A DNA stretch of 26,561 nt from a virus (Duplodnaviria > Caudoviricetes). A program made the position numbers and the translations under genes. The notes under the pieces were generated by a model. It saw only the letters and a program-made list of their open reading frames with translations, had not been told where the DNA came from and ran no database searches. The DNA lies in the IMG/VR virus record IMGVR_UViG_3300025498_000017, positions 1 through 26,561 of that record. The stretch is one strand, 5' to 3'. Numbering within the stretch: the first letter of the stretch is position 1; every line of letters starts with the position of its first letter. Below, piece after piece: positions 14,684 through 17,382 of this stretch.

Positions 14684-17382
14684 TTAGCTAATAGCTGCAA
14701 TTTGTTACTCGCCTTTCGGCGGGATGAGCCATTTCTGCTCATCTCTCATGGTTGTATTCCCATGAGATCAGACTATCGCATCACCTTTCGGCGTTCTCTC
14801 GCTTAGTCGTTCAGGCTGCTTTCGCTTGCCCCTTGTTGGCATTTCAGCGTTCAAGTCAATCAGAGAGAATTTAAGCGGCTCCATTGTATTAAAGCCGCAT
14901 CGATTTGACGCATCATTTACAAATCGATAAAATCCGCATGCGTTAAGATTCCTAGCTCACTGCACTTGCAGCGTCGAGAAGTCTCATACGGATCGTAGTA
15001 TCGGGTCCAAGGCTCGTCGTGAAGTGCACACGATAGCTCGTCCATCCGGGGATCAACCCTTCAGGATCGGCAACAGTCGGCTCTGCGTTCTGCACGATGT
15101 TGCACTCGATGTTACGCCACTCACCGTTGCCATAGCCCACATCACCCTTCGCTCCAAGGTTGACGGAGAAGATACCGTCGCGCCCGAAGATATAGGTGCG
15201 GAGTGCGACCAGTCCAGAGTACCCACCGTAGTTCTGGGTCTGGGTGACGAGGTTCGTCTGGAAGAACTGAACGCCGGTAGACGGCAGTTCAATGACTTCA
15301 GTCAGATCGACCGAAACGAGACTTTCCATCTTCAACTGGCCCACCGGAGTGTGCTTCAGAATGTCGATGGGAGAATCGTTGCTGTTGTCAGCAATCACAT
15401 CGCCCAAAGCGAACGGGTGTATGTATTTGTGTTTAGGCTAAATTAGACAGAACACATATGCCCCATTTCATCATGCAAATACTCTTTGCATCTAGGGCAA
15501 TGATCTATATCTAAACCCTGATTCACATCAGGTGCACTCTCACAGTCGCCTGTGAGATCAGACTCTATCTTCACTTCCAGATCTTCGGAAGCGCTTGACG
15601 TATTAGTCGTTACAGATTTTTGATGGTGCAAAAGTTTCATCTCCTGATACATTTTTTCTCGCAAGTCAGGATTTTCTACTTTATGCAATCGAACAAACTT
15701 CAAGAGCAATTTTGCTTGTTCCCGTTTTTCTAATAGATACGGGAGTATCGCGAGCAAAAACTTCTCTCGGGATTCATTCGAATTCAATACCCATTTGTAG
15801 CAAATCTTGTTCGCACGTCTGTCACTGCAATAGTAAGTGCCGCCTACGACTTCAACCAACATTTTAAGCAACGGCAAATAGGTATTCGTCACACCCAGAT
15901 TAGCGGTGTAGTGGAAACAATTAGTTTTGCTATTTTCGGGCCTTCGTATCTTAGATATCGTAAGGTGTCCCTCGCCATCGATAATTCCAGCGATATAGGC
16001 AAACTTCGTTTTTCTCATCAAATCTTTCCTCGGTATTGTCTGCTACTATATTAGTATAACAGAGGTCCACCGATTTAGTCAAGTTTTTTAACGCAGGAGC
16101 CATACTAGCAACCCGCACAAGCGGACATTGCCTTTTGGTTAACCCCTGCGAACGTCTTCGTGCCTTCGTCGAACGGACGCACGCTGCGACCCGCCAGCGA
16201 CTGAACGCTGTTACGAATCTGAGAGAGCGACAGAGCGGTGAAGCTCGAAGTGCCCGAAGCGGCCAGTTCAGTAAGGACACTGGCATCGATGCTGGATGCA
16301 CCATCAGCGGTTGCACGCACGAGTGCGGACAACGATTCGCCAAGGCGATACGACATTTCGCGGGCAACGTTCTCGACGGTGTTGTCAATGGCAGTCGCCA
16401 AACTGAGCGAACTGAAATTGGCGTAGTCAGCATATTCTCCAATCGTGGCAGTGGTCGTAAGAACACTGACAGATAGAGAACTGCCGACAGTACCTTCCGT
16501 AGTCTGGGCCACGTTTGCGGCCAACGGAACGTACATGAACCAAACGTGTTTTGGATTTAAGACTTACTGTCCCTTATGTCACCATAAGGTCGCTCTCATT
16601 GTCACCAATGAGTTCGGGCTCTATCTTTGTCATTACTTGTGAAGAAGTAATGACATTTAGCGTATTAGTCTCTACAGATTCTTCTCTCTGATTTAGAAGA
16701 CAGCACTTTTGTACTAACTCCCGACGTTTTTCCTGTTCACCATAACCTAAACGACAGAAGTCCAAAGCGATTTCTGCTTGCTTTCGTTTGATTACGAGGT
16801 ACGGAAGAATTCCCAAAAGAAACGATTCTCGATTCTTTTTACCGGAAGGATGCCAAACGTATTGAATTTTCTTGGACCAATCAGTGTGTGATCTAGTGTA
16901 AAATTTTCCACCAAAATTACCCACCAACCATTTCATCAAATTCATAGACGTGTTGTAAATTATAATTTGCAAAAAGAAAGCGGATTGTCCATCCGGCTGT
17001 CGTTCGTGCAAACACACACAACCTTCACCATCAAATATTCCGGCCACATACGGCCATTTACTGCTCATAAGAAGCCTTTCCTCGGTATTGTCTGTTGTCA
17101 GATGTTCACCGATTTAGCTAAATTTATTTAGTACGGGACCATCATGTAATCTCGTACTGATTACCTGAATTAACAGGGAGGTCCAAACGTTCTGAACAAG
17201 CAACGAATGGGGTTTGCGCCTTCAGGTTCTCACGGAATTTCTTCATTTATATTCCGTTATTGTCAGTATACCACAATACCCTACTCATGTCAACAGCCTG
17301 ACGTTTACGACAAGAAATCGTAAAACTTTACCGTGGACTGAGGCAGGTTGGCTTGCTGGTTTCCTGCGGGTGAAAAACTCAT
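14684..17382 (-). CDS. Major capsid protein (N4-gp56-like), spliced: join(17382..17317, 17243..17149, 16540..16142, 15423..14988, 14913..14892, 14697..14684), 343 aa
   Basis: Follows scaffold; SD GAGG; joined exons give one frame MSFSPAG..VKFYD|KKFRENL..NQYEM|FMYVPL..FAGV|IHPFALGD..TTIR|MRQIDAAS|AIS*; motifs GEYADY, IHP..LGD, TYIFG, DP.G..GW. Confidence 0.8.
14698..14891 (-). ncRNA. Compact ORF-less group I intron (194 nt), capsid intron 5
   Basis: P1 GCGGCTT/GAGCCGC with U.G; core ACGACTAA...GCGATAGTCT (P7); terminal G; removal restores Ser-Ala-Ile-Ser-stop. Confidence 0.85.
14914..14987 (-). other. Core-less mini-intron B (74 nt) containing an alternative capsid C-terminus
   Basis: P1 ATCCGT/GCGGAT (U.G), P10 ACGCAT/ATGCGT, extra helix ATCGATTTG/CAAATCGAT, ends TAAATG; loop encodes MRLLDAASAVS*. 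Confidence 0.7.
15443..16021 (-). CDS. Intron-encoded single-motif LAGLIDADG homing endonuclease
   Basis: YIAGIIDGEG; ILPYLLEKREQA; C-terminal part reads through the 3' half of the intron core. Confidence 0.9.
   Translation of the reverse strand: MMRKTKFAYIAGIIDGEGHLTISKIRRPENSKTNCFHYTANLGVTNTYLPLLKMLVEVVGGTYYCSDRRANKICYKWVLNSNESREKFLLAILPYLLEKREQAKLLLKFVRLHKVENPDLREKMYQEMKLLHHQKSVTTNTSSASEDLEVKIESDLTGDCESAPDVNQGLDIDHCPRCKEYLHDEMGHMCSV
16053..16082 (-). promoter_or_regulatory. sigma70-type promoter inside intron 3 for the LAGLIDADG ORF
   Basis: TTGACT-18 nt-TATACT with TGn extension; the -10 box lies in an expanded hairpin absent from the related intron 2. Confidence 0.55.
16541..17148 (-). 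mobile_element. Group I intron (608 nt), capsid intron 2, with LAGLIDADG ORF
   Basis: P1 AGTACGAGAT/GTCCCGTACT; P10 TACATGA/TCATGTA; P3 TTTAGC/GCTAAA; core AGAGACTAA..AAGATAGAGCCC; P9.0 GAAC/GTTT before terminal G; junction AT+G = Met (a 1-nt shifted Ile junction is also in frame). Confidence 0.85.
16574..17068 (-). CDS. Intron-encoded single-motif LAGLIDADG homing endonuclease
   Basis: YVAGIFDGEG; ILPYLVIKRKQA; C-terminus overlaps the intron core. Confidence 0.9.
   Translation of the reverse strand: MSSKWPYVAGIFDGEGCVCLHERQPDGQSAFFLQIIIYNTSMNLMKWLVGNFGGKFYTRSHTDWSKKIQYVWHPSGKKNRESFLLGILPYLVIKRKQAEIALDFCRLGYGEQEKRRELVQKCCLLNQREESVETNTLNVITSSQVMTKIEPELIGDNESDLMVT
17244..17316 (-). other. Core-less mini-intron A (73 nt) containing a promoter
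   Basis: P1 TTTACGAT/GTCGTAAA (U.G), P10 TTCTT/AAGAA, extra helix ACGGAAT/ATTCCGT, ends TAAATG; in-frame TAA if retained; removal fuses YD|KKF. Confidence 0.75.
17265..17293 (-). promoter_or_regulatory. Near-consensus sigma70 promoter within mini-intron A
   Basis: TTGACA(17293-17288)-17 nt-TATACT(17270-17265), TGn extended -10. Confidence 0.75.

Follow-up and report, generated by a model that had tools for sequence, protein, structure and literature searches.

Core-less group I mini-introns in a phage capsid gene, likely removed by the full intron downstream

Introduction

Phage capsid genes can carry group I introns, as in mycobacteriophage LittleE (PMC3706429), and small degenerate ones are described from fungal nuclear SSU rDNA, including the 67-nt intron PaSSU and those of Phialophora, Porpidia and Arthonia (PMC3160393). 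As described there, the fungal introns (56–81 nt) combine a U·G wobble in P1 with a P10 and with base pairing between their central part and the 3' exon; they keep a P7 of their own, end in U, occupy one rRNA site and splice themselves. In vitro, intron-derived ribozymes use their terminal G to excise internal segments (PMC2532722), and a truncated Tetrahymena core splices a P1/P10 pseudoknot in trans but needs free guanosine (Sargueil and Tanner 1993, as described in PMC2532722). In the exon skipping reported for tandem group I introns of Twort orf142 and Coxiella 23S, a downstream core reaches the upstream 5' splice site (PMC10136302), and organellar twintrons and tandem 'zombie' twintrons are described as linked modules spliced in order (PMC8393795).

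We analysed a window of 26,561 nt, the whole stretch of the Caudoviricetes record IMGVR_UViG_3300025498_000017 considered here, in which the capsid gene of an uncultured phage holds two short inserts, mini-introns A and B. Together with their relatives (minis), they resemble self-splicing group I introns of phages (Rfam RF00028) in the exon-U·G wobble of P1, in P10 and in the terminal G; like these they hold a stop codon or frameshift and use the same insertion sites. Unlike phage group I introns, minis have neither P3–P9 nor the P7 guanosine site and no RF00028 match, are fixed upstream of a full intron (the presumed helper) and bear an extra arm aimed at that neighbour's 5' exon. They share P1 U·G, P10 and the pairing between intron centre and 3' exon with the fungal introns (PMC3160393), but end in G (57/57), lack P7, occupy 13 sites of phage mRNA and always occur with a downstream helper. 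An earlier note on this DNA knew of no natural class of this kind, a statement that these core-poor fungal introns qualify, although they are described as self-splicing.

The removal proposed below resembles trans excision-splicing (PMC2532722) in that a core excises a foreign segment ending in G and the ribozyme's terminal G would be the first nucleophile; that reaction, as described, is engineered, runs in vitro and takes its guide from the ribozyme, whereas minis bring guide and tether and lie in natural mRNA. Exon skipping involves two introns with cores and loses the exon (PMC10136302), whereas minis carry their own P10 to keep it. Twintron modules are nested or abutting and each has a core or leaves as part of one unit (PMC8393795), whereas 15–216 nt of coding exon separate a mini from its helper.

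Results

When A, B and the three full group I introns are taken out, the capsid gene encodes a gap-free protein of 343 aa with up to 92% identity to uninterrupted homologues, and alignment with 73 full-length homologues shows no gap at any junction. The earlier note had given the positions and sizes of both inserts correctly (A, 17316..17244, 73 nt; B, 14987..14914, 74 nt; minus strand), and both fall between whole capsid codons, as it had claimed. Letter-identical copies occur in other contigs (B in nine, A in eight of those nine), which excludes an assembly error. In order of transcription, the gene comprises:

17317..17382, minus strand: capsid exon 1, codons 1–22
17244..17316, minus strand: mini-intron A, 73 nt, after codon 22 (P10 strand 17316-17312, P1 strand 17311-17304, terminal G 17244)
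17251..17257, minus strand: 3' arm of A, whose partner in exon 2 is 17238-17232
17149..17243, minus strand: capsid exon 2, 95 nt
16541..17148, minus strand: full group I intron 1, 608 nt, codon 53, terminal G; presumed helper of A
17068-16574, minus strand: LAGLIDADG-like ORF of intron 1 (motif spotted by eye)
16142..16540, minus strand: capsid exon 3
15424..16141, minus strand: full group I intron 2, 718 nt, codon 186, terminal A
16021-15443, minus strand: LAGLIDADG ORF of intron 2
14988..15423, minus strand: capsid exon 4
14914..14987, minus strand: mini-intron B, 74 nt, after codon 332 (P10 strand 14943-14938, P1 strand 14937-14931, terminal G 14914)
14920..14928, minus strand: tether arm of B, whose partner in exon 5 (14907-14899) comes immediately ahead of the P1 partner of intron 3
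14892..14913, minus strand: capsid exon 5, 22 nt, with the partners of P10, tether and helper P1 in tandem
14698..14891, minus strand: full ORF-less group I intron 3, 194 nt, codon 339, terminal G; presumed helper of B
14684..14697, minus strand: capsid exon 6 and stop codon

The ORF of intron 1 has no Pfam match. Intron 3 has no Rfam match, and across 38 relatives its core pairings hold in 237 of 259 cells for P3, 134 of 148 for P4, 186 of 190 for P7 and 142 of 152 for P8. Intron 2, which ends in A, has no mini upstream. The portal gene in the window contains two full introns and no minis, and a survey of 43 portal 5' ends for minis returned only alignment noise within the variable N-terminus.

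Much of the anatomy described earlier for A and B is borne out. In both, the exon U pairs with a G in P1, and P10 lies immediately 5' of that G (5 bp in A, 6 bp in B), giving a guide of 13 bp in each insert (shuffle p 0.0015 for A, 0.00035 for B). The extra helices exist as well, with 7 Watson-Crick pairs in A (p 0.010) and 9 in B (p 0.0005); guide and extra helix jointly were equalled by 0 of 20,000 shuffles of either insert. The absence of a core was also confirmed, neither insert having a P7 motif pair or an Rfam group I match; weak Rfam matches near B (snoRNA, E at least 0.14) are chance. The claim of a common design held for the elements themselves but not for their layout, since the guide occupies insert positions 1–13 in A and 45–57 in B. 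The ending TAAATG, listed as part of that design, is no signature of the family: AAATG closes 7 of 57 minis (TTG 23, ATG 20).

In related phage genes, where the earlier note had suggested a search, short inserts with such a guide occur, with compensatory changes in P10 and arm (B versus its homologue in L344/L586) and in the arm helix at codon 22 (site 22). We found 59 distinct inserts of 34–98 nt at 13 capsid codons and used 57 in the main tests; L184 and L555 (fragments of full introns, short loci) had been dropped before these 57 were counted, and only inserts of at least 25 nt were included. The rows of this family are related, and counts overstate independence. An exon T and a terminal G delimit all 57 minis, ends that the aligner slightly favoured through a small bonus, and the P1/P10 guide is better than shuffles (p<0.01) in 53. 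The P7 motif pair was found in 0 of 58 minis versus 49 of 51 helpers. Pairing between minis and the exon upstream, as a general feature, was considered and rejected (3/57 at p≤0.05). Wider scans added little: a metagenome scan gave mostly chance matches (capsid relatives at 17 of 120 loci), a viral scan with native spacing returned mainly uninterrupted genes, and prokaryote genomes held three relatives, two uninterrupted and one too distant for reading.

Full introns of relatives occupy mini sites at codons 20, 22, 28, 52, 53, 327 and 332, and at codon 332 one exists with the anatomy of B. Minis thus seem to derive from full introns at the same sites, as deletion products with a gained arm, which corrects the earlier argument against simple deletion relics.

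The position of minis relative to full introns is strict. The next interruption 3' of a mini is a full intron 15–216 nt away in all 58 informative cases (52 read from the alignment, 4 by eye, and L344 and L598), compared with 10 of 110 full introns that have such a downstream full intron. Complete interrupted genes contain mini and full introns (32) or full introns only (24), and never minis only (0). All 51 scored helpers end in G, whereas 23 of 69 other full introns end in A, a contrast that comes from few sites and is seen within a site at codons 31, 52 and 91 only.

For B, the arm closely matches its place beside the helper (duplex rank 0.001, pairing probability 0.97, 0/15 shuffles as close). 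Among the 57 minis, the best mini–exon helix ends 4–14 nt before the helper 5' splice site in 21, against 3.7 expected, and in none between −5 and +8 of it, so that the tether spares the helper's P1. Mini–helper duplex rank is at most 0.1 in 26 of 55 cases and above 0.1 in 29. When helper sites were swapped, the mini's own won 23 of 25 comparisons at codons 307/313 and 42 of 69 at codons 20/22/26, and the minis of L326 and L598 have 59 nt in common and then diverge, each arm fitting its own helper site. The tether is not universal among minis: none was seen in six site-22 minis, A included, with helpers 88–95 nt off. The extra helix reported earlier is present, and its role is corrected to that of mainly a tether beside the helper's P1, clear in B and absent for A with its present neighbour.

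A is a weaker case than B for removal by a helper. A helix of 6–9 bp is present at the location of A's arm in 12 of 13 site-22 minis, with compensatory change. A ranks 0.77 against its helper site, and folding predicts no approach of A to intron 1 (8/15 shuffles as close). The arm does match the helper position at codon 28; that helper is missing from this genome, so A would depend on intron 1 with no close tether to it. A stem in exon 2 that would place A's helix beside intron 1 appeared in one fold only, was no better than controls and was rejected. Exon 1 is, by codon comparison, under purifying selection in the 13 site-22 carriers, which differ pairwise by 361 synonymous versus 80 non-synonymous codons over codons 12–22.

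Each insert also holds a coding or regulatory element unmentioned in the earlier note:

17265..17293, minus strand: candidate sigma-70-type promoter inside A (TTGACA, 17 nt, TG, TATACT; 11/12)
14952..14987, minus strand: alternative in-frame capsid C-terminus in the P1 loop of B, 11 codons and stop

The promoter pattern recurs in 7 of 57 minis, all of them long site-20/22 ones, and the candidate in A faces the ORF of intron 1. A also has an in-frame ATG at its end (17246); site-22 minis end in ATG in 9 of 13 cases and in TTG, ACG or CTG in 4. The end encoded by B equals the spliced end at 8 of 11 residues (21 of 36 nt identical), and such a C-terminus is shared by mini L344 and the codon-332 full intron L124. 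Because the loop of B (its first 36 nt) encodes a complete alternative C-terminus, removal of B is not required for full-length protein.

RNA runs X1–X3 share few words with the window, and at 94% likeness none of their contigs covers A or B. One contig of X1 (203 nt), from a close relative, matches the last 89 nt of intron 3 and passes, exactly at the terminal G, into base 1 of the relative's upstream mini: 30 of its 113 unmatched letters, those after this G, were compared by eye, and 29 of them equal the first 30 of the L598/L326 mini. The DNA order in L598 is mini, 78-nt exon, then the intron of the junction contig, and among nine DNA matches to the start of that mini eight follow the exon and one is unrelated. 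A second X1 contig passes codon 313 without insert and agrees with the L326 lineage at all 33 listed SNPs (L598, 32/33; median 14 over 474 loci). The relative's RNA thus contains, in one contig each, a junction of helper G to mini base 1 and lineage-matched mRNA without the mini. The former could be a by-product circle of mini, exon and helper, and the latter could be explained by a mini-free strain. A joint that skips A, seen in X1 and X2 at 85% likeness, comes from contigs less than 94% alike and was not counted as splicing of A.

Discussion

A and B have a guide, a terminal G, no core and a G-ending downstream neighbour, and B's arm pairs directly alongside that neighbour's P1 partner. We think it probable that they are core-less group I mini-introns with their own guide that the downstream full intron removes by a relay. 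The full intron would splice itself out first. Its terminal G, now free, would attack the mini at the 5' splice site, after which the terminal G of the mini would occupy the active site for joining of the exons. The order of these steps, the place of the junction on the productive path and the likeness of A and B to the relative's mini are inferred. We lean, by a little, towards the view that minis form a natural, non-autonomous class of group I introns spliced in this manner: the excised intron would stay on the mRNA through its guide with the mini tethered alongside, and one ribozyme would carry out two splicing events and leave as a helper–mini chimera, with A-ending introns of these phages immune to such parasitism. 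The earlier proposal, that core-less guides are spliced by the core of a neighbouring intron, finds support in the family survey and the relative's RNA; its choice of any of five introns gives way to the next one downstream. As the helper would act through its own terminal G, a test for 5' G addition on the mini could be falsely negative.

The downstream intron might instead splice the mini in cis within the precursor, free guanosine being the first nucleophile and the RNA junction a by-product circle. Downstream position and tether fit this equally well, use of a distal 5' splice site by a downstream intron is described (PMC10136302), and the junction contig's length, which would fit an 83-nt mini plus 30 nt of the next exon, is the same for a circle. 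It leaves unexplained, however, that A-ending introns never help (0/51 versus 23/69), and the mini would have to leave first, whereas the tether keeps clear of the helper's P1; we regard it as possible but unlikely.

It is improbable that A and B stay unspliced here, B being read through to its own C-terminus and a capsid without residues 1–22 being made from A's promoter and ATG 17246. B does encode a full-length alternative end, and A combines an 11/12 promoter and a terminal ATG, shared by 9 of 13 site-22 minis, with the lack of a tether. Such use conflicts with purifying selection on exon 1 in carriers, with the 4 of 13 site-22 minis that end in TTG, ACG or CTG and with the compensatory change in B's P10 and arm relative to L344; a weak ribosome site would moreover be sequestered by A's arm, and the reading is inapplicable to minis at codons 300–327.

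Splicing in trans by whichever group I core is present in the infected cell, or by a protein, with adjacency reflecting co-inheritance in homing, would suit the six untethered site-22 minis, and trans splicing of P1/P10 substrates is described in vitro (PMC2532722). Set against the strict downstream polarity (58/58), arms that vary with the helper site and an RNA junction to the cis neighbour, it appears very improbable.

Minis occupy phases 0/1/2 in 43/9/5 cases. Programmed ribosomal bypass of the T4 gene 60 type jumps a gap that separates whole codons and is flanked by matching take-off and landing codons; B does start with the first codon of the following exon, but A has no matched pair and 14 of 57 minis split a codon, on which count phase-0-only insertion was rejected. 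Bypass and self-splicing as minimal ribozymes together merit the least credence: a 67-nt intron with P1, P10 and 3'-exon pairing is described as spliced in vitro (PMC3160393), but 58 minis lack the P7 motif pair, lengths go down to 34 nt, interiors are not conserved and minis are never alone in a gene.

Removal by the downstream intron through a relay, if true, would be the first natural case, within the literature searched, in which a group I core processes another intron that has no core of its own, and A and B would be parasites of a parasite. It would explain short frame-breaking inserts that annotation would label pseudogene damage, and would offer design rules (a guide and a tether, at least 34 nt) for cutting chosen segments out of RNA. 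In-cell multiple-turnover splicing by a group I ribozyme would become testable with transcripts of 200–400 nt. A split into catalyst and substrate has long been proposed as a step towards spliceosomal introns, and these phages would provide a living model of self-splicing introns dividing into a catalyst and a passive substrate.

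The capsid gene and its interruptions

The window comes from an uncultured phage. Its interrupted gene, for which Pfam gave no match, has several homologues that their source names as major capsid proteins of the N4-gp56 family. Joined, the six exons encode 343 aa with up to 92% identity to uninterrupted homologues; aligned with 73 full-length proteins, this product shows no gap at any of the five junctions. Three of the five interruptions are full group I introns; the others are mini-introns (minis) A and B, short, core-less group I-like inserts with their own P1/P10 guide.

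Capsid gene features (all minus strand)
17382-17317, exon 1
17316-17244, mini A, 73 nt, after codon 22
17243-17149, exon 2
17148-16541, full intron 1, 608 nt
16540-16142, exon 3
16141-15424, full intron 2, 718 nt
15423-14988, exon 4
14987-14914, mini B, 74 nt, after codon 332
14913-14892, exon 5
14891-14698, full intron 3, 194 nt
14697-14684, exon 6

Two further full group I introns, both ORF-less, split the 5' end of the portal gene (22262-22067 and 22049-21847, with a 17-nt exon between). Nuclease-like free-standing ORFs follow the capsid gene (14640-14056) and the terminase gene (22984-22442); the latter has a weak GIY-YIG match, and the former, similar to it by eye, has no Pfam match. Of two small ORFs among the structural genes (11162-10716 and 9440-8931), one looks antitoxin-like by eye and the other endonuclease VII-like.

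A family of core-less inserts upstream of full introns

Related capsid loci (L-numbers) were gathered from viral contigs and metagenomes and then read by protein-to-DNA alignment with introns allowed; part of the scans targeted short inserts, and family frequencies are not population estimates. Distinct inserts of 25-110 nt initially numbered 58; removing two fragments of full introns and adding B left 57. L344 (codon 332) and L598 (codon 313), found later, bring the total to 59 minis, at codons 17, 20, 22, 26, 28, 52, 53, 300, 302, 307, 313, 327 and 332. Codons 300, 302, 307, 313, 17 and 26 held minis alone in this sample, without full introns. A T precedes and a G ends all 57 (the aligner slightly favoured such ends), none is an open in-frame insertion, and phases 0/1/2 number 43/9/5. 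A contiguous P10-G-P1 guide exceeded shuffles (p<0.01) in 53/57, and a P7 motif pair was found in 0/58 minis tested versus 49/51 helpers, the complete introns next downstream. The pairings that the earlier note described in A and B are present, guide and extra helix being jointly matched by 0/20,000 shuffles for each insert, but the shared TAAATG ending noted there is not conserved among the 57.

A long intron is the next interruption, 15-216 nt downstream, in 52/57 minis by alignment; in four more its start was recognised by eye, and the remaining locus is truncated. L344 and L598 conform, so that a full intron comes next in 58/58 informative minis, compared with just 10/110 full introns having such a neighbour. 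Complete interrupted genes comprise 32 with mini and full introns, 24 with full introns alone and none with minis alone. Among introns of at least 170 nt with a complete-looking end, a terminal G was found in 51/51 scored helpers versus a terminal A in 23/69 other full introns of the clade, although the entries compared are related to one another and codons 31, 52 and 91 supply the within-site contrast. The A-ending introns lie at codons 31, 52, 91, 104, 186, 189 and 212, have an apparently ordinary P7, and include window 16141-15424, L078, L096, L101, L113, L081, L151 and others. Codon-339 introns (window 14891-14698; L598 862-1056; L102) are near-identical or similar, and serve minis at codons 332, 313 or 327, depending on strain.

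The extra helix as a candidate tether

Pairing predictions suggest a mainly tethering role for the extra helix, which would hold the mini beside its helper. When the 3' part of each mini was scanned along its own spliced gene, there was a sharp pairing peak (mean z -1.55; duplex rank <=0.1 in 26/55) just 5' of the helper's 5' splice site. The best contiguous helix ended 4-14 nt 5' of that site in 21/57 minis (3.7 expected) and never between -5 and +8, so the putative tether would adjoin the helper's P1 but leave it free. In swap tests, the own helper site was best in 23/25 cases at codons 307/313 and in just 42/69 at codons 20/22/26. The L326 and L598 minis have 59 nt in common and then differ, with an arm suited to a helper at codon 327 in L326 and at codon 339 in L598; on such comparisons, the putative arm changes together with the helper site.

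By these predictions B is a textbook tether case and A is not. In exon 5, partners of B's P10, tether and helper P1 stand in tandem; the tether ranks 0.001, its predicted approach to the helper was equalled by 0/15 shuffles, and L344 differs from B by compensatory changes in both P10 and arm. A's extra helix recurs in 12/13 site-22 minis and ends 8-9 nt 5' of the codon-28 intron in the 6 relatives having one; in the window it ends 83 nt 5' of intron 1, with rank 0.77 and a predicted approach no better than controls. Separately, pairing is possible between a 46-nt mini at codon 26 (L131) and the guide region of its codon-31 helper, the sole G-ending intron among six at that codon. In the codon-53 introns of L155 and L260, the stretch just 3' of the helper P1 is predicted to pair with exon near the mini, possibly a second way to bridge long exons.

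An RNA junction in a close relative

The window's own strain was in none of the RNA runs examined; a close relative was present in run X1. There, a 203-nt contig (depth 15.7) aligns to intron 3's final 89 nt without mismatch but with one gap, and departs from it at the terminal G (14698). The 30 letters shown beyond it agree, by eye, at 29 positions with the start of the L598/L326 codon-313 mini. DNA of L598 reads codon-313 mini, 78-nt exon, codon-339 intron, the tail of which shares the contig's one-base insertion, and all 8 capsid matches to the mini's start in viral contigs come directly after exon; the RNA junction therefore inverts genomic order. It sits precisely on two splice sites, with no letters in common at the joint. 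A second contig (814 nt, depth 51.4) passes codon 313 without insert and ends 30 nt into the next exon; it agrees with the L326 lineage at 33/33 listed differences and with L598 at 32/33 (median 14 across 474 loci), and could alternatively derive from a mini-free strain. The 113 unmatched letters of the 203-nt contig equal 83 + 30, from which we infer a run through the mini into that exon. The junction shows, for one case in a relative, that a helper's terminal G reacted at a mini's 5' splice site; it fits a productive intermediate and a circle alike.

How the minis may be spliced

The earlier note's central idea, core-less guides spliced by a neighbouring core, is strengthened by the 58/58 downstream full introns and the helper-mini junction, with its details revised. 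That minis depend on the downstream neighbour, by either route below, is likely. We favour, as the rather more probable route, a relay in which the helper would first splice normally and keep its pairing with the 5' exon, while the tether would hold the mini's P1 beside it, and, after P1 exchange, the helper's terminal G would attack; the mini's own terminal G and P10 would then prepare exon joining. Such a relay would account for the polarity, the G-ending helpers, the tether sparing the helper P1, the order problem and the RNA junction. Its precedents are in vitro only: excision primed by a terminal G, and splicing of a P1/P10 pseudoknot by a truncated core (PMC2532722). Splicing in cis by the helper with free guanosine is a less probable alternative; a distal 5' splice site is usable by a downstream core (PMC10136302).

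Origin and contents of A and B

Of the other contigs, 9 carry B letter for letter, and 8 of these 9 also carry an identical A. The P1 loop of codon-332 introns (window 14987-14952; L124, L344) repeats the final 11 capsid codons and their stop in recoded form; in B, where the first 36 nt hold this copy, 8/11 residues equal those encoded after splicing and the stop falls at the matching position, with just 21/36 nt identical. Since this alternative end also occurs in mini L344 and in L124's full intron, B is derived from, or of common origin with, a full intron. mRNA left unspliced thus still encodes a full-length protein (343 aa for B). A contains a sigma-70 promoter pattern (11/12 positions, extended -10), found in 7 minis, all long site-20/22 ones, and this predicted promoter likely drives the helper's nuclease gene; internal promoters appeared in 0/6 helpers of such minis versus 5/12 others, a weak contrast from an ad hoc pattern. 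A capsid restart at ATG 17246 is unlikely because exon 1 is conserved among carriers.

Relation to known introns

No natural helper-spliced group I class was found in the literature searched, most subscription papers being outside its scope, nor any class like the minis in the available passages of reviews of bacterial group I (PMC3984707) and organellar introns (PMC8393795) or of two phage papers (PMC3706429, PMC11878797). Among natural elements already described, small fungal rDNA introns come nearest: in the passages available, they resemble minis in P1, P10 and 3'-exon pairing but have P7 and a terminal U and reportedly self-splice (PMC3160393). Lacking a core, A and B fall outside the self-splicing group I class and probably use group I chemistry lent by a neighbour.
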